DNA from: a virus
Taxonomy: Duplodnaviria; Heunggongvirae; Uroviricota; Caudoviricetes
Reading direction: 5' to 3' (one strand)
Length of the DNA stretch: 64,000 nucleotides
Virus record (IMG/VR): IMGVR_UViG_3300028591_000077
Below, in pieces: positions 44,607 to 62,962 of this stretch (within the stretch, counting starts at the first letter, position 1; every line of letters starts with the position of its first letter). The notes under the pieces are model-generated. The model was not told the DNA's origin. It was given only the letters and a program-made list of their open reading frames with translations, and searched no databases. A program made the translations under genes and the position numbers.

Positions 44607-45071
44607 ATGAACATTATTAAGTACCCAGACGAAAGGCTTAGAGAAATTTCCAACAAAGTCAGTCTCCCGCTTTCTGCAAAAGACAGAGCAACTTTAGATG
44701 AAATGTATTCATGGCTAAAAGATAATAGCGATGCTGCCGTTGGCTTATCAGCTATTCAAATTGGCATTGCAAAAAGAATGTGTGTCATTAGAATTAAAGA
44801 CGAAAAGACCATTGGTTACAAGCTGGTTAATCCGAAGATTATTAAGCACTCTAATAGACAAATATTTATGTCAGAAGGATGCTTGTCTGTGTTAGAAGAT
44901 CATGAAGAGGCCATCCCAAGATGGGAATCTGTTGTGGTAATGGCTTATGATGCCATCTCAAATAAAAATATTGTAGTTGAAGCGACTGGCTTTCTAGCGA
45001 GAGTTTTTCAGCATGAAATTGATCATATGGATGGCAAACTTTATATTGATTATATTAAGGAGGAAATGTAA
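44607..45071 (+). CDS. def: peptide deformylase
   Basis: GLSAIQIG, EGCLS and QHEIDH match PDF motifs 1-3; leaderless ATG right after ttgtataatat. Confidence 0.85.
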   Translation: MNIIKYPDERLREISNKVSLPLSAKDRATLDEMYSWLKDNSDAAVGLSAIQIGIAKRMCVIRIKDEKTIGYKLVNPKIIKHSNRQIFMSEGCLSVLEDHEEAIPRWESVVVMAYDAISNKNIVVEATGFLARVFQHEIDHMDGKLYIDYIKEEM

Positions 45072-45487
45072 TGATTGATAAATTCGATGAAGAATATAGT
45101 TTTTTAAGTAATTATTATCCATGTAAAGTTGTTTATAATGGTTATACATTTTTAAGTTCAGAAGCTGCATATCAATCTCAGAAAGACCCAAGCCGCGTGG
45201 AAGAATTCATTAATTTAGAAGCGGATGATTCAAAACACTTGGCCAGAAAAGTTAACATTAGGCCAGATTGGGAAGAAGTTAAATTACCAATTATGGAAGA
45301 AATTGTTAGAGCTAAATTTGAGCAAAATAAAGACCTTGCTGAAAAATTAATTGCAACAGGCGATGAAGAACTTGTTGAGGGTAATTATTGGCGCGATTGT
45401 TTCTGGGGTGTCTGCAATGGTCAAGGTGAAAATCATTTAGGCAAAATACTTATGCAGATAAGAGCTGAACTTGGTGGTAATAAATAA
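45071..45487 (+). CDS. NADAR (YbiA-like, DUF1768) domain protein
   Basis: FLSNYY, SEAAYQSQK, RAKFEQN..L...L.ATG...LVE, WG...G.G.N.LG align with E. coli YbiA. Confidence 0.75.
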   Translation: MIDKFDEEYSFLSNYYPCKVVYNGYTFLSSEAAYQSQKDPSRVEEFINLEADDSKHLARKVNIRPDWEEVKLPIMEEIVRAKFEQNKDLAEKLIATGDEELVEGNYWRDCFWGVCNGQGENHLGKILMQIRAELGGNK

Positions 45488-45765
45488 TGGAATTTAAACC
45501 AAATTATAGAACCGAAGACGGCTTATTTGAAATAATGCTCGATAAGAGCGCCTTAACTTTAGAGCATCCAGAAGCAAGAGCAAATTGGGTATCTAAAGAT
45601 ATCACTTCTTCTGCAAAAATAACTGTCTATAATACTGAAACTAAAGCTTTAAGCCAAAAATCAATTTATTACAGCAAAACAAAAGGTTTTTATTTTAAGG
45701 GACATTATGGCTATTGGAATAACTATAGCTATAGTATCAGCGAATTAGTACCTATAGAGGAGTAG
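45487..45765 (+). CDS. hypothetical protein (92 aa)
   Basis: ORF. Confidence 0.45.
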   Translation: MEFKPNYRTEDGLFEIMLDKSALTLEHPEARANWVSKDITSSAKITVYNTETKALSQKSIYYSKTKGFYFKGHYGYWNNYSYSISELVPIEE

Positions 45766-45769
45766 AACA

Positions 45770-47107
45770 ATGTTGTCAAAATTTAGTCAATTTGTCAATG
45801 AGATTTTAGCTGATAATTCAAGATTGGCTAAAATTGCTGTTTTAGAAAAATATAAGGATGATGAATCCGTTAGGTATTTTTTACAGTTTGTTTATGACCC
45901 ATATGTTACAACCGGATTATCCGATAAGAAATTAAATAAAGATGTCGAGATCTTTAGCTATAGCTTATTTGATGCCGACGGTAATTTTAATGAAGATTGT
46001 GATACTATTTTTCAGCTTGACTGCTCAGAGGATGAGGATAAGGCAATCTTTGAATATATTAAAGAACATAATACCGGTAGGGATAGTGATATTAGAACTG
46101 TTCAGAATTTCAAGAAAAGTCATTTTAATAAATGCCCCGAAATGCTTGATTTGTTTGATAGAATAATTACTAAGAATCTTCAATTAGGTATTGATGCGAA
46201 AACTATTAATAAAGTTATTCCAGGTCTTATTCCTGAATTTAATGTTATGCTTGCAAATAAATATTTCGATAAACCAGAAGTTATTGATGGTAGAGAGTTT
46301 GTTATCACAACAAAAATTGATGGTTCAAGAATTATCGCAATGAAGGATAATGGCCAAGTTAGTTTTTGGACTCGTCAAGGACAAAAATACGAAGGCCTTA
46401 TTGACTTAGAAGAAGCTCTTAAAAATATTAGTGAAGATAATTTTGTACTAGATGGCGAAATCGTTGCCATGAATACAGATAAAGAAGACACTTATAAAAA
46501 TACCATGAAGCTTAGTAGAACAAAAGAGCAAGCTAAGCATGGTCTTAAAATGTTAGTCTTCGATTATATGCCAATTGCTAATTTCAAGCTTCAGTGTTGC
46601 CCAATGACTTATAGTGCAAGAAGAAGTACTTTATCTGCAATATTTGACCTTAATGGACAACATCTTGCACCTTATTTTGAATTATTGCCAATGCTTTATA
46701 GAGGCACAGATACTAATAAAATAATCGAACTTTTAAACGAGCAAACAGCCAAAGGTGAAGAAGGAATCATGATTAACATCTGTGATGCCCCTTATGATTT
46801 CAAAAGAAGCAACAATCTTCTTAAAGTAAAGAAATTCCAGGATACTGAAGTTAAGATTGTTGGATATGAAGAAGGTGTTAATAAATTAGCTGGAACATTG
46901 GGCGCATTTATATGCGAATATAAAGATAATATTGTGCGTGTAGGCTCCGGATTAAGCGATGAAGATAGAGCTTATTTCTGGGCTAATCAAGATAAATATC
47001 TAAATAAATATATCACGGTCAAATATTTTGAAGAAAGCTATGATTCTAAGACAAATCTTCCTTCATTAAGATTCCCAATTTATATGAGGGTTAGAGAAGA
47101 CATTTAA
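45770..47107 (+). CDS. ATP-dependent DNA ligase
   Basis: motif I KIDGSR, motif III LDGEIVAM, motif IV EGIMINI, motif V LLKVKKF. Confidence 0.75.
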   Translation: MLSKFSQFVNEILADNSRLAKIAVLEKYKDDESVRYFLQFVYDPYVTTGLSDKKLNKDVEIFSYSLFDADGNFNEDCDTIFQLDCSEDEDKAIFEYIKEHNTGRDSDIRTVQNFKKSHFNKCPEMLDLFDRIITKNLQLGIDAKTINKVIPGLIPEFNVMLANKYFDKPEVIDGREFVITTKIDGSRIIAMKDNGQVSFWTRQGQKYEGLIDLEEALKNISEDNFVLDGEIVAMNTDKEDTYKNTMKLSRTKEQAKHGLKMLVFDYMPIANFKLQCCPMTYSARRSTLSAIFDLNGQHLAPYFELLPMLYRGTDTNKIIELLNEQTAKGEEGIMINICDAPYDFKRSNNLLKVKKFQDTEVKIVGYEEGVNKLAGTLGAFICEYKDNIVRVGSGLSDEDRAYFWANQDKYLNKYITVKYFEESYDSKTNLPSLRFPIYMRVREDI

Positions 47108-47158
47108 TTAAAATATTATTGCTAAATTATATTAGTTACTGGTAAAGGAGAATATAAT

Positions 47159-47419
47159 ATGGCAAAAGGTAAAGGCAGTAAATCAAGTGGTGGTCCACAT
47201 AAAAGTCATGGTCCTAAGAGACACATGTTTAGATGGGCTGGCCCAATGAAACATGAGTTTGCTAAATCTGGTCTTCTAAGCAAATACTATGATTTTGAAT
47301 CTTGGCAATTAGCTATGGCAGCAAGAGGCTGTAAAAAAGCTGATTACAATGAGTTTAAGACATTCGTATTGCTAAGCATGGAAGAAAAGAGAGCATACTT
47401 CGCAAATCTTAAAAAATAA
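47159..47419 (+). CDS. small basic protein (86 aa)
   Basis: ORF after TTGCTAAATTAT motif; terminator 47405-47437 follows. Confidence 0.45.
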   Translation: MAKGKGSKSSGGPHKSHGPKRHMFRWAGPMKHEFAKSGLLSKYYDFESWQLAMAARGCKKADYNEFKTFVLLSMEEKRAYFANLKK

Positions 47420-47527
47420 GGCTCAAATTGAGCCTTTTTATTTATAAAAATAAAAATCGTATAATACTATGTTGGGTTCCCGGAATGGTCCATAGCATTC
47501 TAGCCCGTAAGTGGAGAAAGAGAAAAT

Positions 47528-47794
47528 ATGGATAAGAAAAGCACAAAGGGGCTGACTGCTGTTGAGGCAAGAGCGCTCGCAGACAAGGCTGAAGTTCTTT
47601 TAGGAAGAATTTATAAAGGCATCAAAGAACAAGCAAGAGAAAGCATGACTACGCTTAATTATTATCTCTCTGATGCAAGTGCGATAGCTGTTGAAACGGT
47701 AGTAAATACTCTAAAGATTGAAGGCTATCAGGTAGAAGCTGTTACGAACAAGACGGATGATGTTGTTGAAACAGTAATCAAAATTGCTTGGTAA
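47528..47794 (+). CDS. hypothetical protein (88 aa)
   Basis: ORF with 70-nt structured leader. Confidence 0.45.
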   Translation: MDKKSTKGLTAVEARALADKAEVLLGRIYKGIKEQARESMTTLNYYLSDASAIAVETVVNTLKIEGYQVEAVTNKTDDVVETVIKIAW

Positions 47795-47862
47795 TCAGGA
47801 AAAGAATTATAATTAGAGGGTTTATTGTTTACAAACCCTCTTTTTTATTGTATAATAATAGT

Positions 47863-48255
47863 ATGAGATATTTCATTTCTGGCCATGGTTGGCTTTCACA
47901 AGAACAATTCAATCAATACTACGTCCCAGTCTTAGAGCGAATCTTAGAATACGATTTAAGTAATTCAGAATTCGTTGTTGGAGATTTCAAAGGCGTAGAT
48001 ATTATAGCGCAGCAATGGCTTGTCGATCACGGTAAGGCAGAACAGCTTACAGTATATCACATGTTTGATAAGCCAAGAAACCTTGCGACTGGTTGTGAGC
48101 ATTATTGTGAAATCAAGACAGTTGGCGGATTCAAGACTGATGAAGAAAGAGATGCAGCCATGACGGCTAATTCGGACTTCGATATCGCATTCGTGTTTAG
48201 AAAGAATTCAGGCACAGAGAGAAATATCAAAAGACGACATATGAAAGGAGCCTAG
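47863..48255 (+). CDS. hypothetical protein (130 aa), leaderless
   Basis: ATG right after ttgtataataatagt. Confidence 0.45.
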   Translation: MRYFISGHGWLSQEQFNQYYVPVLERILEYDLSNSEFVVGDFKGVDIIAQQWLVDHGKAEQLTVYHMFDKPRNLATGCEHYCEIKTVGGFKTDEERDAAMTANSDFDIAFVFRKNSGTERNIKRRHMKGA

Positions 48256-48258
48256 AAG

Positions 48259-49683
48259 ATGTTTGTTAAAAAAGTAGAATTTAATTGGACAGATACAAAT
48301 CTATTAAGTAGCTTACTTGGCCTATTTAATGCTTTTAAGCACGCAGATAAAGAATTATATCTTGTTGGCGGTTGCGTTCGAGATTTACTTCTAGGCAAAA
48401 CTCCAAAAGATTATGATTTATGCACAAACGCCACCCCTGATGAAGTTAAGGCTATTTGTGAAAAGACCGAATTAAAGACTTTTGATTCCGGTATTAAGCA
48501 TGGAACATTAACTGTTATTGATGATTTATATCATCAAAGCTTTGAGATTACAACCTACCGTATCGATGGAAAATATTCAGACGGTCGTCATCCTGATGAA
48601 GTTGTTTTTACTCCTTCATTAGAAGAAGACTTAAAACGTCGCGACTTCACAATCAACTCTTTCGCTTATGCTTTATCAAAACAAGAATTAATTGCTTTAG
48701 ATGAGTCTTATTTCAAAGACTTAGAATATGGCATTATTCGAACTGTTGGAAATCCAGAAGAAAGATTTAAAGAAGATGCTTTGAGAATGCTTAGAGCGTT
48801 CAGATTCATGGCGCAACTTAATTTCAGCCTTGATGCCAATACATTTAATGCTATTAAGGCTTTAAATTCACTTCTTGTAAATGTTTCTAAGGAAAGAATT
48901 AGAGATGAGCTTACAAAGATTGTTATGAGCGATAATCCACAAGTTTTAGAGCTTATTGTTATTGCTAAGCTAGAGATATATATTTTTGATGGTAAAACTC
49001 CATTAACAGATTGCGTCAATTGCCAACATGATAATCCATGGCATTATACTGACGTATTTCATCACACAATGGATGTCATTAAAAGAGTGCCTAAAAAGTT
49101 TGAGCTAAGATGGGCTGCATTGTTCCATGATTTTGGAAAACCAGCAACAAAGCAACTAAAAGAGGGAACTACAAATCATTACAATTATCACGGCCATCCA
49201 GACGTTTCTGCTGAAATGGCCCTGGTTTTGATGGATATTTTGAAGTTTTCAAATGACCAAAAAGACTTAATTTATAAGTTTGTTAAATATCATGATACTG
49301 ATTTAGTGTCTTGCAGAAATGCAACGTTCAAAAATGTTCTTGTTGAGATTGGTGTTGAACATTTTCCTGACTTTATTAAATTAAAGCTAGCAGACGCAAT
49401 GGCACATCAAATCACAAAAGATACAAAGTGGGCTATCGATGCAATTAGCAAACTTTATGAAAGATTTGATAAAACAGTCGTCGAATCACAAGCCTTGACA
49501 GTTAAGGATTTAGCAATCAACGGTTATGATATAATCAATGATGGATTTTTACAAGGTAAAGAAATCGGCGATTGCCTAAGATGGATGCTTGATATCGTGT
49601 TAGAGCACCCAGAATATAACACACGAGAAAAATTGCTTGAGCTTCTTCAAACGTTCAAGGAGATGTCTTTTCAGGCAAGCTAA
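48259..49683 (+). CDS. cca: CCA-adding tRNA nucleotidyltransferase with HD domain
   Basis: LVGGCVRDLLLGKTPKDYDL pol-beta head motif; downstream HD motifs HHTMDV / FHDFGKP. Confidence 0.8.
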   Translation: MFVKKVEFNWTDTNLLSSLLGLFNAFKHADKELYLVGGCVRDLLLGKTPKDYDLCTNATPDEVKAICEKTELKTFDSGIKHGTLTVIDDLYHQSFEITTYRIDGKYSDGRHPDEVVFTPSLEEDLKRRDFTINSFAYALSKQELIALDESYFKDLEYGIIRTVGNPEERFKEDALRMLRAFRFMAQLNFSLDANTFNAIKALNSLLVNVSKERIRDELTKIVMSDNPQVLELIVIAKLEIYIFDGKTPLTDCVNCQHDNPWHYTDVFHHTMDVIKRVPKKFELRWAALFHDFGKPATKQLKEGTTNHYNYHGHPDVSAEMALVLMDILKFSNDQKDLIYKFVKYHDTDLVSCRNATFKNVLVEIGVEHFPDFIKLKLADAMAHQITKDTKWAIDAISKLYERFDKTVVESQALTVKDLAINGYDIINDGFLQGKEIGDCLRWMLDIVLEHPEYNTREKLLELLQTFKEMSFQAS

Positions 49684-49695
49684 GAGGACAAAACA

Positions 49696-50256
49696 ATGAA
49701 AGTGATATTCTTAGACATAGATGGCGTTATGAATGACGAGCTCGCATACAGGGCTTGGAAGGAAAACCCAGACAAAGAGACCTTTGAAGATTCTGACGTT
49801 CCTACGGATCAGCATATGGCTCAATTAAAGAGAATTGTTGATGCGACTGGCGCGGAGATTGTTTTGTCCTCAGCCTGGAGATGCTCTATTTGGGGCATGA
49901 GGACTGTTCTGGAGCGCCTTAATGACTATGGCTTAAAGTTATTAAGCGTTACTGATGAAGGTGTCCCAGAATCAGTTTTAGACGCCTCTGGCTTTGGTGA
50001 TTTAGAACCAAGAAGTGTGTCTAAGCGTTCTTGGGACGGTTCCAACACCATGATTGTTAATGATCGTGGTGCAGAAATTGCCGGTTGGATGCTAAGACAA
50101 AAGAATAAAGGAGTCAATATTGAATCATTCGTTATCTTAGATGATGAGGATGTCGATATTGTTCAATACTATCCGAAAAATCTTATCAAAACAAGCTATA
50201 TGGCTGGCTTGACTGATGAAGATGTTGAAAAATGTATCAGTATACTAAATAATTAA
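49696..50256 (+). CDS. HAD-superfamily phosphatase (paralog A)
   Basis: FLDIDGVMN motif I, VLSSAWR; paralogous to 55165 ORF. Confidence 0.55.
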   Translation: MKVIFLDIDGVMNDELAYRAWKENPDKETFEDSDVPTDQHMAQLKRIVDATGAEIVLSSAWRCSIWGMRTVLERLNDYGLKLLSVTDEGVPESVLDASGFGDLEPRSVSKRSWDGSNTMIVNDRGAEIAGWMLRQKNKGVNIESFVILDDEDVDIVQYYPKNLIKTSYMAGLTDEDVEKCISILNN

Positions 50257-50257
50257 A

Positions 50258-51235
50258 TTGTATTATATAAAGGAGGTGCTGCTTATGAGAGACACAAATT
50301 TACCAATGTACCAAATGATTGCAGATGTCAATGAACTTAAATGGTTTTTTGATCATGTCATTCAAAAGCCACAAGTTAATGAATCTTATTCTGCTGTCTT
50401 TGTAAGCAGACATAAAAAGCTTACAAAAGAAGAACAAGAAGAAGTCGGTCTAACCCGTAAAGAAGCAGAATTTTTAGCTACACAAACTTTTAGACTTGGC
50501 AGCTTTAAAGACGCTTTATATATTGATGAGGCAAATAACTGGACTTTTGATAGGTTTTTACAAAGGGTTAGACGTTTTAATGTCGATAAATATTCTTATA
50601 CGACTTCTAAAGGTCAACCTATCCCAACGAAAACTTTGGCTGTTATTTTCTATGTCAACCCATGTGATGACATCAAAGTCGTCAGGGAATTCATCAATCA
50701 ATATTTAGACGTCAGTCAGGCTATTTCAAAAGCTATGCTTGGTGGCAAAACGACTGTTGACAATCTTCAAAGCTATCAATGGTTTGGCAATGCTGAAAGC
50801 AATCTTAAGCATTTAAAAGCAAATCAAAAAGGCACTAGATATTGGATGGACTTCGATATCGACGTTCCTAAATGGTTTAAAACAAATAGCTACAAAGACC
50901 ATAACGAAAAAACAGTTACCTATTTCGAAGCTTTAAAAGAACAACTTACTTTGAGGTTTGGAAAAGGCAATTATGTAGTGGTTGATACTAGCGGCGGATA
51001 TCACGTGCTAGTAAAAACAACTTCTATAAAAGAAGATCCACATAAATTCTGCACTGCCGTAAAGCTTATCTATCAACTTGGCATTATGGCCGGTGAGGAA
51101 GAATACTTAGATGAAAAAGGCACATGTAAGTTTGAGTGCATTATCAATGATTCTCAAATTCCTGGTTTACCTCTTCCTGGCACCTATCAATATGATAGAC
51201 CTGTCACGGTTCTAAATAAGGAGGACTTTGACTAA
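50258..51235 (+). CDS. hypothetical protein (325 aa)
   Basis: ORF. Confidence 0.5.
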   Translation: MYYIKEVLLMRDTNLPMYQMIADVNELKWFFDHVIQKPQVNESYSAVFVSRHKKLTKEEQEEVGLTRKEAEFLATQTFRLGSFKDALYIDEANNWTFDRFLQRVRRFNVDKYSYTTSKGQPIPTKTLAVIFYVNPCDDIKVVREFINQYLDVSQAISKAMLGGKTTVDNLQSYQWFGNAESNLKHLKANQKGTRYWMDFDIDVPKWFKTNSYKDHNEKTVTYFEALKEQLTLRFGKGNYVVVDTSGGYHVLVKTTSIKEDPHKFCTAVKLIYQLGIMAGEEEYLDEKGTCKFECIINDSQIPGLPLPGTYQYDRPVTVLNKEDFD

Positions 51236-51629: not shown

Positions 51630-51639
51630 GAGATACATT

Positions 51640-52062
51640 ATGTTAATAGATGAAATCAAAAAAGCGAACATAGATGCTATGAAGGCACGCGACGCAGATG
51701 CACGTGCGGTATTATCTATTGTAATTAATAAATACACAACTGCTAATATAGAAGCAAAAGCTGCTGGAAAAGAACTAACAGATGCCGATATGTTAGCAAT
51801 TATCCAAAAGACTCTAAAAGAACTTCAAGATGAGGGTGAGGGTTATTGGAAAACAGGCAATGCTGAAAGATATGATTCTATTACTCACCAAAAAAGAGCT
51901 ATTTCTGTATTCTTACCAAAGCAGCTTACGGAAGCCGAGATTAGGGCTGAGATAGATAAATTAGAAGACAAGTCAATTCCAAGCGTTATGAAGCACTTTA
52001 AAGCCAATTTCGCAGGTCAGGTTGATATGTCTGTAGTTAGCAGAATTGTGAGAGGAGCTTAA
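51640..52062 (+). CDS. GatB/YqeY domain protein
   Basis: N-terminal helix pattern EIKKANIDAMKARDADARAVLSIVINK resembles YqeY. Confidence 0.55.
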   Translation: MLIDEIKKANIDAMKARDADARAVLSIVINKYTTANIEAKAAGKELTDADMLAIIQKTLKELQDEGEGYWKTGNAERYDSITHQKRAISVFLPKQLTEAEIRAEIDKLEDKSIPSVMKHFKANFAGQVDMSVVSRIVRGA

Positions 52063-52063: not shown

Positions 52064-52564
52064 ATGGCAGAAATTAAAGAGTTAACTCTTGATGAGTGCA
52101 GAACTCAAACTCAAAAACATATTGATTTAGTTAATAAACTAGGTCGTATTTATATCAACGAGCTTAATACTAGACTTGCCAACCACGATAAGTCTAAGCT
52201 AGAAAGTCCTGAAGTCGAAGAATTTGCCAAGGTTACAAATGGCCTTGCTACTACGACCTATGGCAGTGAGGAATACATGAAGTTCTTAAAAGAAGACTTA
52301 GCTCTTGCTCTTGAGCATCACTATGCTCACAATCGTCACCATCCAGAGCACTTCGGCGAACGTGGCGTCGACGCTATGAATCTGTTTGATTTAGTTGAGA
52401 TGTTCTTAGACTGGCTAGCTGCCTCTAAGAGACAAAACAACGGCAATCTTATGGTTAGCATTGATAAGTCTTGTGAAAGATTCAACATTACTGGCACGCT
52501 TGCCAATATCCTTAGAAATACTGTGGATTACTTTGATGCAATATTAAGTGCGGAGGATAAATAA
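52064..52564 (+). CDS. His-rich putative metal-dependent (HD-like) protein, paralog 2 of 3
   Basis: NHDKSK ... HHYAHNRHHPEHF. Confidence 0.45.
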   Translation: MAEIKELTLDECRTQTQKHIDLVNKLGRIYINELNTRLANHDKSKLESPEVEEFAKVTNGLATTTYGSEEYMKFLKEDLALALEHHYAHNRHHPEHFGERGVDAMNLFDLVEMFLDWLAASKRQNNGNLMVSIDKSCERFNITGTLANILRNTVDYFDAILSAEDK

Positions 52565-52990: not shown

Positions 52991-54079
52991 ATGAAAGTAG
53001 TTTGCACAGGTTCAACGTATAAGATTTATGATAATAATTTAAAGACCTATGATCAGCTACCGCCAGCCACATATCTTGTTGGCTGTGGTCAATTTACCGG
53101 TTTTTATTTAGAAAAACAAGAAGATGTCGTCGTCAATGAAAAGATTTATGGTGTGCATCAGGCAAAAGTTGATAAGATTTTAGCATCTTTTAAAGATTTT
53201 GAAAGAAACCTTGGCGTTATCTTATCTGGTGATAAAGGCATTGGTAAATCATTATCAGCAAAGCTTTTAGCTCGGGATGCTATTGCCGCAGGTTATCCTA
53301 TTATTCTTGTCAATAGCTACTTCGAAGGTATTTCTGAGTTCATCGACAGCATTACGCAAGAAGTTGTTGTTGTCTTTGATGAATTCGATAAGACTTATTC
53401 TGAAAAAGGCGCGCAAACTCAGTTACTTACACTTTTAGATGGTTTCGGTTCTGGCAAAAAGCTATTCGTCATTACTTGTAATAATTTAAGCAATGTTAGC
53501 GAATTCTTAGTCAATCGTCCAGGACGTTTCCATTATCACCTTAGATTCGGCTATCCAACTCATGAGGAAATTCGTGAATATCTACAAGATAAGCTCGATA
53601 AGAAATATTGGGGTGAAATTGATTCTGTCATTGTTTTCAGCGGCAAAGTCGAATTGAACTATGACTGCTTACGCGCTATCGCTTTCGAGCTAAATCGTGG
53701 AAGCACATTTAAAGAAGCAATCAGCGACCTTAACATCGTCAATTACAATAAGTCTACTGAGGCTTACGTCGCAACGCTTATTTGCGAAGACGGCACACAA
53801 ATGGTCTTGAAGCAATGCTATGTCGATTTCAGCGACTATGACGAATACTTCTCTATTACATTCCGTGGTAACGACTTACGTTGCTATGTTGAATTCAATC
53901 CATTTGAAGCTGGCTATTATGACAGTTCTAGAATGCTTACTGTTGTCCAAGGTAAAGATGTTGAAGCACAATGGACTGACAGGGTTGGTAATGACCTTAA
54001 GAAAAACGTTAAGACTCCAGTCATTAAAGAAATTCTCTTCAAGCGTAAATACGATTATAATATCCATTATGCTGTATAA
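52991..54079 (+). CDS. AAA+ ATPase
   Basis: Walker A GDKGIGKS, Walker B VVVFDEFD. Confidence 0.6.
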   Translation: MKVVCTGSTYKIYDNNLKTYDQLPPATYLVGCGQFTGFYLEKQEDVVVNEKIYGVHQAKVDKILASFKDFERNLGVILSGDKGIGKSLSAKLLARDAIAAGYPIILVNSYFEGISEFIDSITQEVVVVFDEFDKTYSEKGAQTQLLTLLDGFGSGKKLFVITCNNLSNVSEFLVNRPGRFHYHLRFGYPTHEEIREYLQDKLDKKYWGEIDSVIVFSGKVELNYDCLRAIAFELNRGSTFKEAISDLNIVNYNKSTEAYVATLICEDGTQMVLKQCYVDFSDYDEYFSITFRGNDLRCYVEFNPFEAGYYDSSRMLTVVQGKDVEAQWTDRVGNDLKKNVKTPVIKEILFKRKYDYNIHYAV

Positions 54080-54130: not shown

Positions 54131-54976
54131 ATGAGCAGAGAAGAAAACGTTAGGATTTTTCAAGACACAATGAATTTTATTCATGATAATAAAATCTTGT
54201 CAGAAGCTGTAAGAAGCACAATTCAAAATACAAAGCTTTATAAGACTTCACAAGAGCCCACAAATTTAGCTACTAAATGTTTTTTAAATAATGTCTTTGT
54301 GACAAACCATAAGACTTTTGAAGCAGTTTTTGAGTTACGTAAGACATATCTTAACTCTAAGATTGCAGTTCTCAACTTCGCTTCGGCAACAAAACCTGGC
54401 GGTGGAGTGACAAGTGGTGCTTCTGCACAAGAAGAGGCTTTATGTAGATGCTCTACATTATTTCCGTGTCTATCAACCAAAAGACTTTATGAAGGATTCT
54501 ATGGTCCGCACAGGGTAGATGGCAATCCACTTCATAATGATGATATTATTTATACACCAGATGTTATTATTTGCAAGACAGACGATGGTAGGTTTAATAG
54601 ACTATCCGATGATAAGTTTATTAAAGTAGATGTCATTACTTGTGCTGCTCCAAATCTAAGACATAACCCAAATCATCCTTTTAGCGATTATGATAGGGTT
54701 GTGGATGATGCAGTTATTTCTGCCACTGACTTAGAAGAGCTCCATTATAGAAGGGCGAAACAAATTCTTAATGTAGCTATTGAAAATGGTGTTAAAGTTT
54801 TAGTTCTTGGTGCATTTGGCTGTGGCGCTTTTAAAAATAGCCCAACTGTTGTAGCAAGAGCCTATAAAAGAGCTTTAGAGCAATATGCATCTAAGTTTGA
54901 TGAAATTGAATTTGCAATTTATTGCAGGGATTATGAAACTCAGAATTATGATGCATTTAAACGAGAATTAGAATAA
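54131..54976 (+). CDS. PARG-like macrodomain protein (DUF2263-type ADP-ribose glycohydrolase)
   Basis: PGGGVTSGASAQEE fits the PARG signature GGG-X6-8-QEE. Confidence 0.6.
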   Translation: MSREENVRIFQDTMNFIHDNKILSEAVRSTIQNTKLYKTSQEPTNLATKCFLNNVFVTNHKTFEAVFELRKTYLNSKIAVLNFASATKPGGGVTSGASAQEEALCRCSTLFPCLSTKRLYEGFYGPHRVDGNPLHNDDIIYTPDVIICKTDDGRFNRLSDDKFIKVDVITCAAPNLRHNPNHPFSDYDRVVDDAVISATDLEELHYRRAKQILNVAIENGVKVLVLGAFGCGAFKNSPTVVARAYKRALEQYASKFDEIEFAIYCRDYETQNYDAFKRELE

Positions 54977-55164: not shown

Positions 55165-55809
55165 ATGTGCATTATATTTTTAGATATAGATGGTGTATTA
55201 AATGCTGCTAATGATTTTGGTGGTCGTAAAAAGCCAAATCCAATTGTAACGTCAGATTCTGGCATTAGGTATTGTGGCATTAGCAAAACAAAAGCTAAAG
55301 AGCTTAAGTGGATAGTCGATAAAACTGACGCCAAAATTGTTTTAGTATCTTCTTGGAAAAGTGATTATGCAGAATATTTAAGAAATAAAACGAATAAAAC
55401 AGGCAAATATCTGTATAATAAGCTTAGAAAAGTTGGCTTATCAATTTATGACCATACTAACGATTTAGCCGTTGGTTTTCATTCTCATCGCGGGCACGAG
55501 ATAGTTACTTGGCTTGCTAACCAACCTGAGCCAATAGATGCTTGGGTAGTGCTCGATGATGAAGTATTCAGCGACTACGGCGATAGTATTAAGCAAAATC
55601 TTATTTTAACCTCTGAACATGATGGTTTAACACATGAGCTGGCAAAGCTTGCTGCATGCAAACTATTGGGACTTCCCGAGGGTTCATTCGATACTGAGTT
55701 TGAAAAGCTAGCAAAAGAGATGACTGCAGCGGCAATTCCAGCAGTTGAAGAAAAAGAACTGGTTATTATTAAACCAAATGGTCCTGCAAAACAAATAAAC
55801 AATAAATAA
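55165..55809 (+). CDS. HAD-superfamily phosphatase (paralog B)
   Basis: FLDIDGVLN, VLVSSWK. Confidence 0.55.
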   Translation: MCIIFLDIDGVLNAANDFGGRKKPNPIVTSDSGIRYCGISKTKAKELKWIVDKTDAKIVLVSSWKSDYAEYLRNKTNKTGKYLYNKLRKVGLSIYDHTNDLAVGFHSHRGHEIVTWLANQPEPIDAWVVLDDEVFSDYGDSIKQNLILTSEHDGLTHELAKLAACKLLGLPEGSFDTEFEKLAKEMTAAAIPAVEEKELVIIKPNGPAKQINNK

Positions 55810-55830
55810 TTAATAAATTTCTGCTAAATT

Positions 55831-56490
55831 ATGTGTATGAATTTATTAGAAACCTATGATGAATTAAGTGCATTAAATGAATCGCCTATATATTCAGCAT
55901 ATGAACCAATAAATTTAGAAGCATTCGAGAATGGCACAAATAATGTGCTATATATTGTAGGCATGCCAGGAAGTGGAAAGTCTACCTTGGCTGATATGTT
56001 AGCAGAACAATATGGCGCTAAAATTATCAACCTTGATAATGGCTGACTCGGTGGCATAGTTAACGTTACTGACGAAGAGCTTGAGATTTCTTGGTTTGAT
56101 GAAGAATTTTGGCGTCATTTTCCTAAATACAGAACAACATTTGACAATGTTTGCAAGTATGTGAACGAGCATCCAGAGGACCCGTATGCTGCTGAAAATT
56201 GTCCTGACACAGATTCTGTATTAGGCGGCACCTATTATACCGATTATATTAAATATGCAATAGAATACGCTAATAGTCATAAACAAGAAAAGTTTATAAT
56301 TGAAGGCGTTCAACTATTAGATAGAGATTCTGCTGGATATTTACATAGAGCTCTTATGGGACCAGACCCTTCTATATTATTCATGAGAACTAAATCAAAA
56401 AGAGTTACAAGAAATATTAGAGCAAGGGATAAAGCTTGGGGATTAAAGCCAAGAGACCCAAAAGAGTTACACAAACAAAACATGAAATGA
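55831..56490 (+). CDS. P-loop NTPase/kinase-like (one TGA-Trp)
   Basis: Walker A GMPGSGKST; ORFs 55831 and 56161 joined via TGA 56044. Confidence 0.5.
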
Positions 56491-56538
56491 AAGAAAGAAA
56501 TCGATGATTTCAGAAAAGAATTCAAAGGAGAATAAAAT

Positions 56539-58788
56539 ATGGTAGCTTACAAGTATGTTGTTTGCAGTGATACAGAGCCTAGCATCTACGACGAATTTGA
56601 AATTGCAGATGAGGCTATTGCTTATGCAAGTGAGCACAAGGATGCTGCAACTTATGTAAAGAAAATCGAAGTAGAATTAAATGACTTTGGTGAAGTTACG
56701 CAAGAATATGGCAGTGAGATTATTTGGTCTGCTAATGACGAGCTTTCAGTACAAGCCAAAGATAATTTCATGACGCCTGAGGATGAAGAAGAATGGCTTA
56801 AACAAATGGAGCAAGAAGAGGAAGATAGAAAATATGTTGATCCATTTGAAGCCGATGAATTTGGTGATTTCTACACAAATAGACATGAAAGTTTAGACGC
56901 CGATAAAATGGTTGAAGCAATGGAAGAAAATGAATCTGAAGTAGAATGCAAACGTTGCTTTGAATTATTTCCAAAAGAGGATTGTATTAAAACCGAGCAC
57001 GGCTATTTATGCAAAGAATGTGCAAGTCAGCATGAATCTTTAGAAAATACTGTTGAAATTGACTTAAACGATGATAGAACACCACATACAGAAACATCTG
57101 TAGAAATGGAAGAACCGTTTGTAGCAAATGATATGCGTAAGCATGAGCATGCTATTAAAGATGATGATTCTCATGAGTTTAAATTCTTCTATTTAGAGGA
57201 TTGGGATGTCGAGCCAAAAGCCGAATCCAATGCCGAAGCTCGTGTTACAGATTTCTTTGGCGATTTAGAATCTATTGAAGAACATGTTCAAGATAGACCA
57301 GCACCTGTTGAGTCAGAACAAGAATTACAAGGCACAGATAATGCAGTTGTTGATTGTCAAACAGACCATAAAGTTATTGCTCATAGCGAAGATGAGAAAC
57401 CATTAGATTGCAAAATGAAAAAACCAGCTCTTGAGAAGCCTTTAGCCGGTGAAGAAGTTGGTATTAAAATTAATGAAGATACTGATATTAAGGATCTCTC
57501 CAGCCAACAAAAAAATGATGTTATTACAGATGTTGCCAAATCACTTGCTAGTAAAGATGTTAATACTGTTAAAGCCGGCATCACAAGAGAGCAGGGTGGT
57601 ATTGCATATGAAAATGAAAAGGTGCAAAATATTAAAAAAGCTATTTTTGAAGAGAACTTAACTGAAGAATTAGATGAAAAAGAAATTCCTTGGATTTTGC
57701 AACAAGGTGAAGATGGTGAACCAGAATTTATTGGTTGGGCTAAATCAGAGAATGATTTAATCTCTCAAATGGTTGCAAATCATACATCAGATGTTATCTA
57801 TGAAAATACTTATATTGATGAGCTAGATAAAGATACCTATGAATATATGAAAAAAGATGGTGATTTATCTGAAGATGAAATTGAGGAATTAGATAAATAT
57901 TTTGGTATTGCTGAAAATTTAGAAGAGGCCAAGAAAGATGATGAATTACCAGTTGATCCAGAAGCCGCTAAACTTGAAGTTCATACTATGCTAAATGATT
58001 TAGTGGCCGATGAGATTGAAGCAATCAATGGTTATGAAGAAGCTAAAGCTGAAATCATGGATACTCCAATTGCTCATAAAGATAATATCTTAGATACTAT
58101 TGACCACGTTGAAGATGAAGAAAAAGAACATGTTGACGAATTAATCGATGCTACTACTGAAATTCCATTTGATAAAGAAGAGGCTCCTGCTGCCAAAGAG
58201 CAAAAAGTGGAAGAGACACCAGCTGAAGAGCCAATTGATGCTGATCCATTTGATCAAGAGTTCCCAGAAGTAGCAGAAACTACAGAAGAAGCAGAGGTCA
58301 AAACTGAATCCTATCCAGATATTCCATTTGATTCAGAAGTTAAAGAAGGTGATAAGATTAGAATTATCCATTTAGCTGATGAAGATTCTGAATATGATGG
58401 TAAAGAAGGAACAGTTGAACATATTGACAGTATTGGTCAACTTCATGGAACTTGGGGTGGCTTAGCCGTTATTCCAGGTGTTGATGAATTTGAAATAATC
58501 GCTAATGAATCTTTTAACGAAGGGGTCAGTCTCGATAACCCCTCACTAAAAAAGGGGCTTGGATATTTAAGCAGATACCCAAATAAAAATGCTTATGTGT
58601 GTAGCTATAGAGATATGAGAACACATCAAGTAGTTACAGTTGATAGAGGTTTTGATACTTATGAAGACCTCATGAAATATATTAGAGCAATGGAAGCTGC
58701 AAATAAAAATATAGGCAGCTTCGAAGTATTATATTCCAATGATCTTGAAAAATACTATGATGCTCTAAATCAAAAAATAATTAAATAA
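56539..58788 (+). CDS. very acidic 749-aa protein with Cys4 zinc ribbon
   Basis: long D/E-rich ORF; CKRC ... CKEC. Confidence 0.55.
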   Translation: MVAYKYVVCSDTEPSIYDEFEIADEAIAYASEHKDAATYVKKIEVELNDFGEVTQEYGSEIIWSANDELSVQAKDNFMTPEDEEEWLKQMEQEEEDRKYVDPFEADEFGDFYTNRHESLDADKMVEAMEENESEVECKRCFELFPKEDCIKTEHGYLCKECASQHESLENTVEIDLNDDRTPHTETSVEMEEPFVANDMRKHEHAIKDDDSHEFKFFYLEDWDVEPKAESNAEARVTDFFGDLESIEEHVQDRPAPVESEQELQGTDNAVVDCQTDHKVIAHSEDEKPLDCKMKKPALEKPLAGEEVGIKINEDTDIKDLSSQQKNDVITDVAKSLASKDVNTVKAGITREQGGIAYENEKVQNIKKAIFEENLTEELDEKEIPWILQQGEDGEPEFIGWAKSENDLISQMVANHTSDVIYENTYIDELDKDTYEYMKKDGDLSEDEIEELDKYFGIAENLEEAKKDDELPVDPEAAKLEVHTMLNDLVADEIEAINGYEEAKAEIMDTPIAHKDNILDTIDHVEDEEKEHVDELIDATTEIPFDKEEAPAAKEQKVEETPAEEPIDADPFDQEFPEVAETTEEAEVKTESYPDIPFDSEVKEGDKIRIIHLADEDSEYDGKEGTVEHIDSIGQLHGTWGGLAVIPGVDEFEIIANESFNEGVSLDNPSLKKGLGYLSRYPNKNAYVCSYRDMRTHQVVTVDRGFDTYEDLMKYIRAMEAANKNIGSFEVLYSNDLEKYYDALNQKIIK

Positions 58789-58936
58789 ATCGTATATTAT
58801 AACGAGCGAACATAAGCATTAAGGAGAAGCCCCAGCTTGATACTTAATGCAAACTCATTTTAATAGAGGTATCCAAGAGCTAGATAGAAATAGTGGAGGA
58901 TACAAAAAACTAATATAGAATTAGGAGAAATTAAAA

Positions 58937-59401: not shown

Positions 59402-59522
59402 TCCTATCTTATCTGGGGCTAATAATTTATAAAAATATTGTATAATATTGTGAGTATAAGTTAGCTCACAAATATAGATGCTCTGACTTATATGTCAGAG
59501 CTTTATTTTTTAGGAGAACTTA

Positions 59523-59936
59523 ATGGACTATAGTAAAGAAGAGGTTATTGAAGCCTTATTGAACAGGGTAAAAAATAATGAGCATAGTTCTTTCGCATTT
59601 ATTAGGTCAATGCAAGAAAGAGCTGCTGCGAAAGAATATTATAATGTCGCTGTAAAAACAGCAGAGCATTTTAATATTTTAAAGCAAGCAATTTTACGTG
59701 GATACTGCAAAGATATTCTTACAGATAAAACAGACATTGAAGGGCTTGTAGCAGTTAGACATTTAGATGAGGCTGTTAAATTCTATTATAATGAAGCTAA
59801 TATAGCTTTAGATGCTTTAAAAGAATATAAAGCTTATTTATTTGGTGGCCATTTATTTGGCAGCATTGTTCTAAACAATTATAGACCAGATGAAGACTGT
59901 ATTGATTATAGAAAATTGCCTTGGAGATTCTTTTAA
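59523..59936 (+). CDS. hypothetical protein (137 aa)
   Basis: ORF; leader has two hairpins. Confidence 0.5.
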   Translation: MDYSKEEVIEALLNRVKNNEHSSFAFIRSMQERAAAKEYYNVAVKTAEHFNILKQAILRGYCKDILTDKTDIEGLVAVRHLDEAVKFYYNEANIALDALKEYKAYLFGGHLFGSIVLNNYRPDEDCIDYRKLPWRFF

Positions 59937-60166
59937 TGGAAAATAACACAAGTTTAGTTCAGCTTTTCAAGGTTTATGCTGAACAGCCAGAGCCACCCAT
60001 TATCGAATTGCAAGATTGCAATCATAAACCAATTGGTGCTTTATATTTAAAAACATTAAGGTATGATAAGTTAGCTATAAGTGAAACCAATAATACTGAG
60101 AAATATTTCTTATATATTGATGGTATCGGAATCTATTTCTCATTTTATAAAAAAGTAAAAGGATAA
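59921..60166 (+). CDS. hypothetical protein (81 aa)
   Basis: ORF. Confidence 0.4.
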   Translation: MEILLMENNTSLVQLFKVYAEQPEPPIIELQDCNHKPIGALYLKTLRYDKLAISETNNTEKYFLYIDGIGIYFSFYKKVKG

Positions 60167-60170
60167 AATT

Positions 60171-60629
60171 ATGCAAGAAAAAATTAAATTAAAACACGAT
60201 CCACATGGTGATTCAAGGCATGCTCCAAAAGACACAACTTTTGAGCAATTTCACGAGGCTAATGTGTCTCATATCCATGATGTTCAATCAGTAATGAATT
60301 GACTTTCTGCGTTGGTTAAGAATCAAGGTAAGATTCATGACTGGACTAAGATTAGGTATGAAAAAGAATTCTGAGATGATTTCTGGAGTGATGATTTCGT
60401 AAATGGCAAATGGTATCAAAGACACATTCATGCTGAAAAGCATCATCCAACATCATTCTGTCACGAGGATATAGACCTTATAGATATCCTAGAAATGATT
60501 GTGGATTGCGTTTGTGCTGGTAAGGCAAGAAGCGGTGAAGTTAGACCAATTGAAATCAATGACGAGATTTTAAAGAAGGCCGTGGCTAATACTGTAAAAT
60601 TAATAGACGAAAATACAGAAGTTGAATAA
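60171..60629 (+). CDS. His-rich putative metal-dependent (HD-like) protein, paralog 3 of 3 (two TGA-Trp)
   Basis: RHIHAEKHHPTSF; TGA at 60300 and 60372 in frame; missed by track. Confidence 0.45.
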
Positions 60630-60639
60630 AAGAGGTTAC

Positions 60640-60665
60640 AGAAACCTCTTTTTTATTGTATAATA
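60640..60665 (+). promoter_or_regulatory. terminator-promoter cassette: hairpin + T-run fused to TTATTGTATAATA extended -10 (representative of at least 12 in the late region)
   Basis: same cassette at 20349, 28969, 34985, 47813, 54078; -35 element absent. Confidence 0.55.
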
Positions 60666-60682
60666 ATTAGAGGTGATTTTTT

Positions 60683-62962
60683 ATGAGAACATTATTGATA
60701 TTAAGAGGAGCCCCAGGTGCTGGCAAATCAACTTGGGTAGAAAATATGGGATTAAAGAGCTATACTCTTTGTCCAGATGACATCCGTGTCTTGTGCGCTT
60801 CACGCGATTTACAAGCCGATGGTTCTTTTGCTATTGCTAGAAATCATAATGTCGAACAAGAAACCTGGAAAATCATTTTAGACCTTTTAGAATATAGAAT
60901 GTCTCGTGGCGAATTAACTGTTTTAGATGCAACAGCTTCTAAAACAAAAGATATTTTACAATACCGTGAATTAGCTGAACAATACCGTTATAGAATGTAT
61001 TGTGTTGATTTTACAGATGTTCCTATTGAAGTATGCAAAGCGCAAAATCTACAAAGACCTGAAGACAAAATTGTTCCAGAATCTGGCATTGATAACATTT
61101 ATGCACGTTTTGCTACACAACCTGTTCCTTCTCGTGTGGAAGTCATCAAACCAGATGAAGTTGAAAAGATTTTAGAAAAACCAATGGATTTATCTACTTA
61201 TAGAAAGGTAGTCTTTATTGGTGATATTCATGGTTGTTACGATACTTTAATGCAATATCCAGATTTTAAAGATGGATTAAAAGATGATGTTGAATACATC
61301 TTTTTAGGTGACTATATTGACCGTGGAAATCAAAACGCTGAAGTTATGAACTGGTTATATTCTATCATGAACAGACCAAACGTTTGTTTATTAGAAGGGA
61401 ACCATGAAAAATATTTAAGAGACTATGGAGCTTCTGTTCCTGCAAAGTCTTCTGAATTTGAAGATAAAACAAAACCACAGTTAATCGCTGGCGGTTTTGA
61501 TGAAAAGAAAGCCAGAATGTTTTATCGTAAAGTTCGCCAAATGTCACACTTTACTTGGAACGGCCTTGAAGTATTAGCCTGCCATGGCGGAATTCCATGC
61601 ATGCGCGCAAACCTTACTTATATTCCTACATGTGCGTTTATCAATGGTGTCGGTGAATATAAAGACTATCAAGTTATTGCCGATACTTGGATGAAAGAAA
61701 CTAAAGAAAACCAATATTTAGTTCACGGTCATAGAAACACTGCGCAAGACCCAGTTCAATTGGCTGATAGAGTTTTTAACTTAGAAGGCGAAGTTGAATA
61801 TGGTGGAAAATTACGTATTGTTGAATTAGAAACTAAAGGTCAATATCCAGAGTATGGTGTCACTGAAAATGGCGACAGAATCCCAGTTGGATTTAATACT
61901 TTATTTAATTGGAATGTTGTTGAATTAGACGACTGCCAACCTGTTACTGAGGAGACACAAACAGAACAACGTAGAGTCGATACTGTTGAGCAAGCAGTCG
62001 ATTATTTAAGAAACAATAAGTTCGTCAAAGAAAAGAAATTAGGTAATGGTATCTCATCTTTTAACTTTACTCGTGAAGCTTTCTATTCTGCTAACTGGAC
62101 AAGACAAACAGTCTTAGCTCGCGGATTATTTATTGATACAGATAATAATAAGATTATGGCGCGTTCATATGAGAAGTTCTTCCGTATTAATGAAGTTCGC
62201 GAAACTGAAATGATTGCTTTAAAGAACAGACTACAATTCCCAGTCAAAGCTTATATCAAAGAAAATGGTTTCTTAGGAATCGTTTCTTATAACTACAAAA
62301 CTGATGATTTATTTATCGCTACAAAGTCATCTGATAAGGGTGATTGCGCGGATTATTTCACAGCAATGCTTGAACCTTATAGAGCAAAAATCCTATTTAC
62401 ATTAAAGACATATTATGAAGCTGGAAATCCAATTTCATTAGTCTTCGAATGTGTTGATCAAGAACATGACCCACATATTATTAGATATGATTCAAGCAAA
62501 GTAATTTTACTTGATGGCGTCAAAAACACTCTTACTTATGACACAATTTCATATACTGAGCTAAAAGCTTGTGCACTTGGAATTGGTTGTGCTGTTAAAG
62601 AGTTGGCTTATACTATCAAAGATTGGGATGAATTCAGAACCTTGGTTATGGCTGCTGATGATGAAGACTATAAATATCAAGGAAGATATATTGAAGGATA
62701 TGTCTTCGTAGACTCTTCAGGATTCATGACTAAGCTAAAAACTGGTTATTATAATTTCTGGAAGTTCATGAGGGGCGTCGCTGACGCGACACTTCGCTGT
62801 GGATACTACCGTAGACTTGGCGCGCTAAATACTGCTGCCGCAAATCAATTCTATGGATTCTGCAAAAAGTGCTTCAATGAAGACAGAATTGTAGAAACAA
62901 AGAGTTACCCATATAAAACAGACATTATTTCATTAAGAGAAAAATTCATCGGAGGTAAATAA
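60683..62962 (+). CDS. pnkp: polynucleotide kinase-phosphatase (bacterial Pnkp-like: P-loop kinase + calcineurin-type phosphoesterase + C-terminal ligase-like domain)
   Basis: Walker A GAPGAGKST; GDIHGC / GDYIDRG / GNHE metallophosphatase triad; C-terminal KENGFLG (KxNG lysine motif). Confidence 0.7.
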   Translation: MRTLLILRGAPGAGKSTWVENMGLKSYTLCPDDIRVLCASRDLQADGSFAIARNHNVEQETWKIILDLLEYRMSRGELTVLDATASKTKDILQYRELAEQYRYRMYCVDFTDVPIEVCKAQNLQRPEDKIVPESGIDNIYARFATQPVPSRVEVIKPDEVEKILEKPMDLSTYRKVVFIGDIHGCYDTLMQYPDFKDGLKDDVEYIFLGDYIDRGNQNAEVMNWLYSIMNRPNVCLLEGNHEKYLRDYGASVPAKSSEFEDKTKPQLIAGGFDEKKARMFYRKVRQMSHFTWNGLEVLACHGGIPCMRANLTYIPTCAFINGVGEYKDYQVIADTWMKETKENQYLVHGHRNTAQDPVQLADRVFNLEGEVEYGGKLRIVELETKGQYPEYGVTENGDRIPVGFNTLFNWNVVELDDCQPVTEETQTEQRRVDTVEQAVDYLRNNKFVKEKKLGNGISSFNFTREAFYSANWTRQTVLARGLFIDTDNNKIMARSYEKFFRINEVRETEMIALKNRLQFPVKAYIKENGFLGIVSYNYKTDDLFIATKSSDKGDCADYFTAMLEPYRAKILFTLKTYYEAGNPISLVFECVDQEHDPHIIRYDSSKVILLDGVKNTLTYDTISYTELKACALGIGCAVKELAYTIKDWDEFRTLVMAADDEDYKYQGRYIEGYVFVDSSGFMTKLKTGYYNFWKFMRGVADATLRCGYYRRLGALNTAAANQFYGFCKKCFNEDRIVETKSYPYKTDIISLREKFIGGK

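Follow-up and report, generated by a model that had tools for sequence, protein, structure and literature searches.

For jumbo phages, Iyer, Anantharaman, Krishnan, Burroughs and Aravind (2021, PMC7824862) have published a model in which phage-encoded enzymes repair tRNAs after cuts by host defences, alongside a supply of phage tRNAs, and section 3.4.9 of that paper lists Rnl1 and Rnl2 ligases, PNK, standalone 'Swiss-army-knife' HAD phosphatases, calcineurin-like phosphatases, the CCA enzyme, Thg1, Macro and NADAR. The other described systems closest to the one treated here are the Pnkp and Rnl1 of phage T4, bacterial Pnkp and the ligase domain of fungal Trl1. Here we compare with them a 64,000-nucleotide stretch of a Caudoviricetes genome (IMG/VR record IMGVR_UViG_3300028591_000077; the whole stretch is called the window below), in particular its positions 44607-62962. 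The window holds an unusual concentration of RNA-end-processing enzymes, as an initial annotation of the DNA had pointed out, and on balance we think it probable that these genes constitute a phage tRNA repair and maintenance toolkit lying beside about 40 tRNA genes. This phage is a further example of a toolkit already described for big phages and not a new type of system.

The window DNA belongs to ENA contig ERZ27256846 k141_3714765 (131,032 bp) and a strain variant of the phage is found on a 237,135-bp scaffold; the source is a large uncultivated phage, with no near-identical DNA among GenBank phages. The DNA is AT-rich (G+C 32-40%), nearly all window genes lie on the + strand, and no tRNA gene lies within the window. 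Our Pfam scans of the window covered most open reading frames (ORFs) of at least 120 amino acids (aa). The ORFs named in the initial annotation are present where it had placed them, except for the frame of a P-loop protein discussed below.

The central gene of the set is the last one of the region:

60683..62962, + strand: trifunctional RNA healing-and-sealing enzyme (predicted), 759 aa; Pfam, NCBIfam, PHROG, PDB, AlphaFold and Foldseek

Its product comprises a polynucleotide-kinase-like P-loop domain (residues ~1-160), a lambda/PPP-type metallophosphoesterase (~175-390) and an Rnl1/Trl1-type ATP-dependent ligase (~440-759), with Pfam matches to AAA_33 (3.8e-17), Metallophos (1.4e-14) and RNA_lig_T4_1 (PF09511; 2e-32, 113 bits against a cut-off of 28). 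The GDIHG, GDYIDRG, GNHE and KENG motifs are invariant in 21 full-length homologs, each of the three domains keeps its catalytic residues unchanged in these and in 16 divergent homologs, and the ligase motifs KFF, KENG, FE, EG and K-x-K are invariant. The ligase thus has the Rnl1-type adenylyltransferase domain with its N-terminal subdomain and motifs I, III, IV and V. In PDB searches the best sequence match of the kinase half was the Pnk kinase of Clostridium thermocellum (4gp7/4mde), and the phosphatase half was of the PPP/lambda type.

The initial annotation had called this protein a bacterial-type Pnkp, a name that profile searches bear out for the kinase-phosphatase portion (residues ~1-400) and contradict for the ligase, which is of the Rnl1/fungal Trl1 type. 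The bacterial Pnkp model TIGR04075, whose cut-off is 750 bits, gave a score of 69 and was covered only at positions 9-400. A ligase-domain profile built from the 16 divergent homologs matched the Trl1-LIG structures of Candida glabrata (4e-26) and Chaetomium (7e-20) and then T4 Rnl1 (7e-10), and found no match to the Pnkp (Rnl4) ligase even at E <= 10; the T4 Rnl1 equivalog TIGR02308 reached 33 bits against a cut-off of 242, and neither this score nor the fold comparison below points to the tRNA-specific C-terminal domain of T4 Rnl1. The hidden Markov model alignment extended to residue 351 of 384 in the C. glabrata LIG, and that to the Chaetomium LIG ended at motif IV-V. An AlphaFold model (predicted local-distance difference test, pLDDT, 79.5) used for Foldseek gave the same order: ranks 1-7 were Trl1-LIG (target template-modelling score, TM, 0.60-0.67, with ~355 columns aligned to LIG structures of 383-395 residues) and ranks 8-10 were T4 Rnl1 (target TM 0.48-0.51, root-mean-square deviation 8-11 A), followed by the C. 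thermocellum Pnk kinase (target TM 0.70-0.74) and then by PP5, PP1 and lambda phosphatase.

A bacterial-type Pnkp/Hen1 system with its Hen1 methyltransferase elsewhere in the genome would account for the order of kinase, phosphatase and ligase, which is that of bacterial Pnkp, and for the homology of the first two halves, but it is at odds with the family score and the ligase profile, with the true bacterial Pnkp genes, which align to residues 4-410 only at ~22% identity, and with the absence of methyltransferase families from the window ORFs scanned and from the Pfam calls already computed for the flanks (window and flanks together covering ~84 kb out of at least 131 kb). We consider such a system extremely improbable. 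The remark in the initial annotation on a missing Hen1 partner came from the wrong family assignment. Rnl1- and Trl1-type ligases function without Hen1, and because the ligase belongs to this type a missing Hen1 is expected.

The enzyme family is very large, phage-borne and unnamed, and joins a healing half of the bacterial Pnkp type to a sealing domain of the fungal Trl1 type. It includes 233 GenBank phage records (among them SPbeta-like, Staphylococcus, Enterococcus and Lactobacillus phages), at least 80 IMG/VR contigs, many of 100-250 kb, and 2869 proteins at E <= 1e-10, many of them on contigs of 100-270 kb. The PHROG family phrog_8238 was matched over the full length of the protein (2e-190), and a survey of 185,579 species genomes returned three full-length matches, on contigs of metagenome-assembled genomes that may be phage themselves.

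The fungal ligase requires a 2'-phosphate through His227, Arg334 and Arg337 (PMC11404444). In the phage family the aligned positions are occupied by a His, a Lys and an Arg, all invariant. T4 Rnl1 is, we presume, also basic near the same positions, and the triad may not discriminate. For the phosphatase, the histidine of GDxHG in C. thermocellum Pnkp (CthPnkp) gives 2'-OH products and its mutation leads to 2'-PO4 products (PMC1920235). The phage phosphatase retains this histidine and no Tpt1 was seen in the visible DNA, both of which count against a 2'-phosphate pathway. We therefore favour a T4-like sealing of 2'-OH ends over the Trl1-like 2'-phosphate route, and regard it as improbable that the 759-aa enzyme resembles Trl1 in needing or tolerating a 2'-phosphate at the break and in leaving a 2'-PO4 junction. 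If it did, phages of this family would naturally supply bacteria with 2'-phosphorylated RNA and would provide a substrate for the widespread, unexplained bacterial Tpt1/KptA enzymes, and the NADAR and PARG-like hydrolases listed below would clear the ADP-ribose cyclic-phosphate by-product. The end specificity of the 759-aa enzyme is a directly testable question.

The remaining genes that we assign to the toolkit are spread over the window as follows:

35247..36197, + strand: Thg1-like 3'-5' nucleotidyltransferase (PF04446 9e-30; phrog_4717 5e-82)
38025..38978, + strand: second RNA ligase, PF09414, Rnl2-type nucleotidyltransferase domain (Pfam 2.2e-21)
45071..45487, + strand: NADAR-domain protein, ADP-ribose processing (PF08719 6.7e-27; phrog_1017 3e-42)
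48259..49683, + strand: class II CCA-type tRNA nucleotidyltransferase with C-terminal HD domain (PolyA_pol 1.6e-35; PolyA_pol_RNAbd 8e-12; HD 3.6e-5; phrog_2244 2e-67)
49696..50256, + strand: standalone HAD phosphatase, HAD_SAK_2, paralog 1 (PF18143 2.4e-23, DIDGV; phrog_1818)
54131..54976, + strand: microbial-type PARG, macrodomain-like (PF10021 1.4e-36)
55165..55809, + strand: standalone HAD phosphatase, HAD_SAK_2, paralog 2 (PF18143 3.5e-24, DIDGV)

Profile searches agree with the initial annotation on the CCA-adding enzyme and on the two paralogous HAD phosphatases. The former has a Pol-beta head and the motifs GGCVRD, DYD, RRD and EDALR in its translation, and the NCBIfam CCA models score higher (241 and 233 bits) than the poly(A) polymerase model PcnB (150). 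The two HAD proteins, at 83.5 and 86.2 bits, lie well above the HAD_SAK_2 cut-off of 27.5, carry the DxDxV nucleophile motif and share 31% identity (E 3e-13). The Thg1 homolog and the second ligase belong to a module at 35-39 kb together with an AAA_28 P-loop protein and a MazG protein.

In the mechanism that we propose, the kinase of the 759-aa enzyme would phosphorylate the 5'-OH of a broken RNA, its binuclear metallophosphatase would take off the 2',3'-phosphate, and its Rnl1/Trl1-type ligase would adenylylate and then seal the ends, so that the pathway of T4 Pnkp plus Rnl1 would be held within a single protein. The two HAD_SAK_2 proteins would act as additional 2'/3'-phosphatases, the CCA enzyme would restore trimmed 3' ends and the Thg1 homolog 5' ends, and the NADAR protein and PARG-like macrodomain would strip ADP-ribose adducts or by-products. 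With Thg1 and the Rnl2-type ligase included, the enzymes would cover the 5' ends, the 3' ends and the internal breaks of tRNAs. The gene identities, the intact catalytic motifs, the fold of the 759-aa enzyme, the reading of TGA as Trp and the tRNA surroundings are established here. We infer that tRNA would be the substrate, that the enzymes would act jointly and that the damage would come from host defence nucleases. The counter-defence role that the initial annotation had suggested is plausible.

The genomic context of these genes escaped the initial annotation: the tRNA array, a tmRNA, a ROOL RNA and a UGA-reading tRNA-Trp(UCA) lie just past the end of the window. The array begins 3.7 kb beyond the 759-aa gene, at window-equivalent position 67030, and contains about 40 tRNA genes. 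The 3' CCA is encoded in 23 of 26 phage tRNA calls, and in the genuine tRNA-His(GUG) gene G-1 is encoded too, facing C73. With CCA and G-1 present in the genes themselves, neither the CCA enzyme nor the Thg1 homolog is needed for the maturation of these tRNAs, which favours a repair role over a maturation role for both. An ARAGORN 'tRNA-His(atg)' of 99 nt and one 'tRNA-Val(tac)' were rejected as miscalls, having neither an encoded CCA nor an Rfam tRNA match.

Several other features of the array deserve mention. The ~100 nt miscalled as tRNA-His(atg) lie between two tRNA-Asp genes of the array (locus L086, 15114-15212) and have no called gene and no Rfam match, as is also the case for ~700 nt (L086 17423-18130) ahead of the ROOL RNA. 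The latter is full-length and lies inside the tRNA array (L086 18130-18715, window-equivalent ~71746-72331; RF03087, 210 bits, E 5e-47). The tmRNA is found between two tRNA-Leu genes (L173 11520-11910, window-equivalent ~74871-75261; RF00023, 78 bits), and ARAGORN gives its tag peptide as DKTLNPAFIASNRFVGARA. Further on, upstream of a 205-aa gene, there is a sub-threshold match to the c-di-GMP-I-UAU riboswitch aptamer (L173 13834-13910; 50 bits against a gathering threshold of 65.9, E 1.5e-8).

In this phage TGA stands for Trp (genetic code 4), a usage confined to a minority of its genes:

12561-13643, 23353-28956, 40178-41881, 41885-42616, 55831-56535 and 60171-60629 (window coordinates): genes with in-frame TGA

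The clearest case is the tail-fibre-like gene at 23353-28956 (frame 1), whose 1867 codons include 8 in-frame TGA, 0 TAA and 0 TAG; a class-3 lipase gene has 1 in-frame TGA. Real TGA sense codons number ~25-30, against 279 TGG. We assign TGA to Trp because TGA and TGG change places between the window and its relatives: three window TGA are TGG in relatives and three window TGG are TGA there. In the gene of a DUF5662 protein (DUF5662b, 60171-60629), 75 of 459 bases differ from the strain variants L087 and L088, mostly synonymously, and both window TGA are TGG in these. In the P-loop gene (55831-56535), the TGA at 56044 is TGG in homologs of 98% and 63% identity, three window TGG are TGA in the same homologs, and the TGA at 56488 stays TGA. 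At the locus of the 63% relative (L090), all 20 genes stop at TAA or TAG and hold up to 5 in-frame TGA each. TGA in conserved genes, TGA/TGG interchange with relatives and a UGA-reading tRNA(UCA) derived from tRNA-Trp are all present. We rejected selenocysteine as the meaning of TGA because of the interchange and because the tRNA(UCA) has an acceptor stem, a G73 and an anticodon arm of the Trp type.

Within the region of interest only the P-loop gene and DUF5662b contain TGA; the genes for peptide deformylase, NADAR, the CCA enzyme, both HADs, YqeY, PARG and the 759-aa enzyme have no in-frame TGA. For recoded phages it has been proposed that TGA-free genes come on before the code switch (Borges et al., bioRxiv 10.1101/2021.08.26.457843), and the presence of TGA in the tail fibre, the lipase and a few other genes, and not in the repair genes, fits such an expression of TGA-free genes before the switch. 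The Pfam scans of most window ORFs of at least 120 aa gave no TrpRS, release factor, Tpt1/KptA or Hen1. Gene calling with the standard code splits or drops genes such as the P-loop gene, DUF5662b and the tail fibre, and this phage should therefore be annotated with code 4.

The tRNA(UCA) is 97 nt long (L173 12340-12436, window-equivalent ~75691-75787; L174 12340-12435 in a strain variant) and is clearly derived from tRNA-Trp: the AGGGG/CCCCU acceptor stem, G73 and the anticodon arm GGUCU-NCA-AAACC are common to it and the phage tRNA-Trp(CCA). Its long variable arm forms a 5-bp hairpin with the 7-nt loop CUCCAAC (in the strain variant CUCCAAA), which copies the Trp anticodon loop; the stems differ between the two variants in a compensating manner. 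When viral contigs were scanned with no condition on this loop, Trp-like tRNA(UCA) genes yielded 58 distinct long variable regions, 35-38 of them with an N-U-CCA-A-N hairpin loop (IMG/VR loci L176-L259). An alignment of 15 such tRNAs showed compensatory changes in 4 of 5 extra-arm pairs, with 98.5% of cells paired; 13 of the 15 stem from an earlier scan in which the search pattern prescribed the loop and the anticodon arm but left the stems free. We found no description of a Trp anticodon loop on an extra arm in the literature searched. The arm may possibly present a CCA anticodon to TrpRS as a decoy while UCA reads UGA. Although it lies outside the window, this extra arm is the most novel by-product of the analysis.

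The genes interspersed with the toolkit are the following:

44607..45071, + strand: peptide deformylase (PF01327 3e-40; TIGR00079 139 bits against a cut-off of 104; EGCLS and HEIDH motifs)
45770-47107: ATP-dependent DNA ligase (Pfam scans)
50285..51235, + strand: conserved protein, function unassigned, beside the CCA gene in the closest relatives
51640..52062, + strand: YqeY / GatB-C-terminal-like protein (PF09424 1.7e-18; phrog_1460 3e-23)
52064..52564, + strand: DUF5662 paralog a, His-rich, HD-like by eye (PF18907 9e-34)
52991-54079: AAA ATPase (Pfam scans)
55831..56535, + strand: P-loop NTPase, specificity unassigned; a single gene only if TGA 56044 and 56488 are Trp
60171..60629, + strand: DUF5662 paralog b, 152 aa (PF18907 2.5e-9 on the code-4 translation; TGA at 60300 and 60372)

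The peptide deformylase and YqeY/GatB calls of the initial annotation are both right. The peptide deformylase, YqeY, P-loop and DUF5662 proteins are neighbours without a demonstrated role in repair. Many small unrelated ORFs also lie between the RNA-end genes. Homologs of the 50285-51235 protein at 55-73% identity adjoin the CCA gene in three loci (L006, L059 and L007), and the protein has no match in Pfam, PHROG or PDB, which leaves unsupported a likeness to primase-polymerases noted by eye (DFDID, SGGYHV). A seemingly 'empty' 516-bp stretch ahead of the 759-aa gene becomes DUF5662b, a gene missed in the initial annotation, once TGA is read as sense. DUF5662 proteins, which are His-rich, occur in the window as three paralogs (30297-30890, 52064-52564 and 60171-60629), and the position of one copy directly upstream of the RNA ligase gene is kept in L006, L059, L087 and L088; no solved relative of DUF5662 was found. 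Between the P-loop and ligase genes, 56539-58788 encodes a 749-aa, extremely acidic protein with long Glu/Asp-rich runs, which has a single profile match, to a DUF4314 domain close to its C-terminus. Elsewhere in the window, accessory genes for a dCMP/cytidine deaminase, a thymidine kinase and an SPFH/Band-7 protein lie among 9144-9647, 21936-22562 and 31265-32782, and a glycosyltransferase-2 fused to TPR repeats is encoded at 42629-43768 on the - strand.

The P-loop protein calls for separate comment, as the initial annotation had made it a kinase (55831-56490) that formed with the second HAD a T4-Pnkp-like pair in inverted order. Its Walker A motif is confirmed. The kinase family is not, nor is an open frame in the standard code, in which 55831-56490 is two same-frame ORFs divided by TGA 56044-56046, with TGA 56488 also in frame, and the gene's end moves to 56535. 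The two genes are indeed adjacent (55165-55809 and 55831-56535), the HAD partner is of the RNA-repair-associated SAK_2 family, and the protein weakly matches phrog_505 'polynucleotide kinase' (E 8e-4), in the P-loop only. The matches in Pfam, PHROG and NCBIfam, however, are all confined to Walker A (residues ~33-70), and no homology to a polynucleotide kinase was found beyond this motif. The protein has no homolog among phage records and only two clusters in 5.8 billion proteins, its 63% homolog has other neighbours with no HAD among them, and an AlphaFold model built on an alignment of two sequences was too poor to use (pLDDT 48.7). With nothing beyond the Walker A motif behind the pairing, a split T4-Pnkp-like kinase/phosphatase pair seems quite improbable.

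To see which of these genes stay together, we counted neighbours within 10 kb of the ligase in 80 IMG/VR loci of ligase homologs. Thg1 was present in 22 of the 80, DNA ligase in 10, CCA in 6, DUF5662 in 5, HAD_SAK_2 in 4, and NADAR and PARG in 2 each, while YqeY, peptide deformylase, Rnl2, MazG and the P-loop protein were found in none; at least 3 tRNAs lay near the ligase in 15 loci. The closest relatives (78% identity) are more compact, running from DNA ligase through CCA, the unassigned protein, HAD, DUF5662 and ligase to 17 tRNAs. An association of ligase, Thg1 and tRNAs is supported by these counts and a fixed multi-gene module is not. The inclusion of peptide deformylase and YqeY in the repair set by the initial annotation has no demonstrated link behind it, neither gene being near the ligase at any of the loci.

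Two other explanations bear on the set as a whole. The genes might serve the upkeep of the phage's own translation during a code switch, together with tmRNA and peptide deformylase, rather than counter-defence, and the immediate downstream position of the ~40 tRNAs, the tmRNA and the tRNA-Trp(UCA), the reading of TGA as Trp, and the lack of TGA in repair and translation genes when tail fibre and lipase have it, which fits expression before the switch, all speak for this. It is weakened by the encoded CCA and G-1, which leave no evident maturation need, and by the ligase homologs that are common in standard-code phages with few tRNAs (SPbeta-like phages, Staphylococcus Herelleviridae); we think it somewhat unlikely, and it and counter-defence are not mutually exclusive. 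Alternatively the genes might form no functional unit, being independently gained accessory genes of the same early/middle region that the initial annotation grouped as a 'second layer'. The low neighbourhood counts, zero for five of the families, and the many unrelated small ORFs in between agree with this, but the activities are biochemically complementary, the closest relatives preserve the gene order, Thg1 accompanies the ligase in over a quarter of the loci, and all the genes adjoin the tRNA array, which together make such a chance assembly distinctly unlikely.

The reading as a tRNA repair and maintenance toolkit has its own difficulties. No anticodon nuclease, toxin or host has been identified, and counter-defence is read from sequence; the visible DNA amounts to ~84 kb, whereas the genome measures 131 kb or more; and Thg1 and the closest relatives aside, the genes do not travel together. 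The CCA scores of 241 and 233 fall under the equivalog cut-offs (290 and 439), the HD domain of this enzyme is marginal (24.5 against a cut-off of 22), the family name HAD_SAK_2 rests on prediction and not on assay, and the PHROGs label of the 759-aa family is a plain 'RNA ligase', with tRNA as the presumed substrate. We nevertheless prefer the toolkit reading at the strength given at the outset. It adds another large phage to the published pattern of tRNAs with RNA-end repair and, given that the repair genes belong to a code-switching phage with its own tRNAs, tmRNA and suppressor, repair and recoding may form one translation takeover.

Set beside the known systems, the 759-aa enzyme resembles T4 Pnkp and Rnl1, the answer to the PrrC anticodon nuclease, in the same three steps, in being phage-encoded and in its Rnl1-type adenylyltransferase domain. 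It differs in being one polypeptide, in having a binuclear metallophosphoesterase instead of a DxDxT HAD, in a ligase that is nearer to fungal Trl1-LIG, and in a TIGR02308 score below the equivalog cut-off. With bacterial Pnkp (C. thermocellum, TIGR04075) it has in common the domain order, homologous kinase and lambda-phosphatase-like domains and the GDxHG histidine, whereas its ligase is not Rnl4, no Hen1 was seen in the visible DNA, the score is far under the cut-off and the family is overwhelmingly phage-borne. The ligase domain of fungal Trl1 (Rnl6 clade) is the best match in sequence, profile and fold, with the C. glabrata LIG alignment reaching into the C-terminal module and the Chaetomium one ending before it, at motif IV-V. 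In contrast, the domain order is reversed, Trl1 heals with a GTP-dependent kinase and a 2H cyclic phosphodiesterase where the phage has a Pnkp-type kinase and a metallophosphatase, and the visible phage DNA has no Tpt1.

At the level of the genome, the phage is like the code-4 gut phages of Borges et al. in its ~200 kb size, its suppressor tRNA(UCA) and the in-frame TGA found mainly in structural genes with standard code otherwise, and is unlike them in that neither TrpRS nor RF1 was seen in the visible 84 kb. It shares with the jumbo-phage repair complement (PMC7824862) the same inventory, including Macro and NADAR, and the many tRNAs, but it stands apart from that complement in being TGA-recoded and in the tmRNA, ROOL RNA and suppressor tRNA next to its repair genes.

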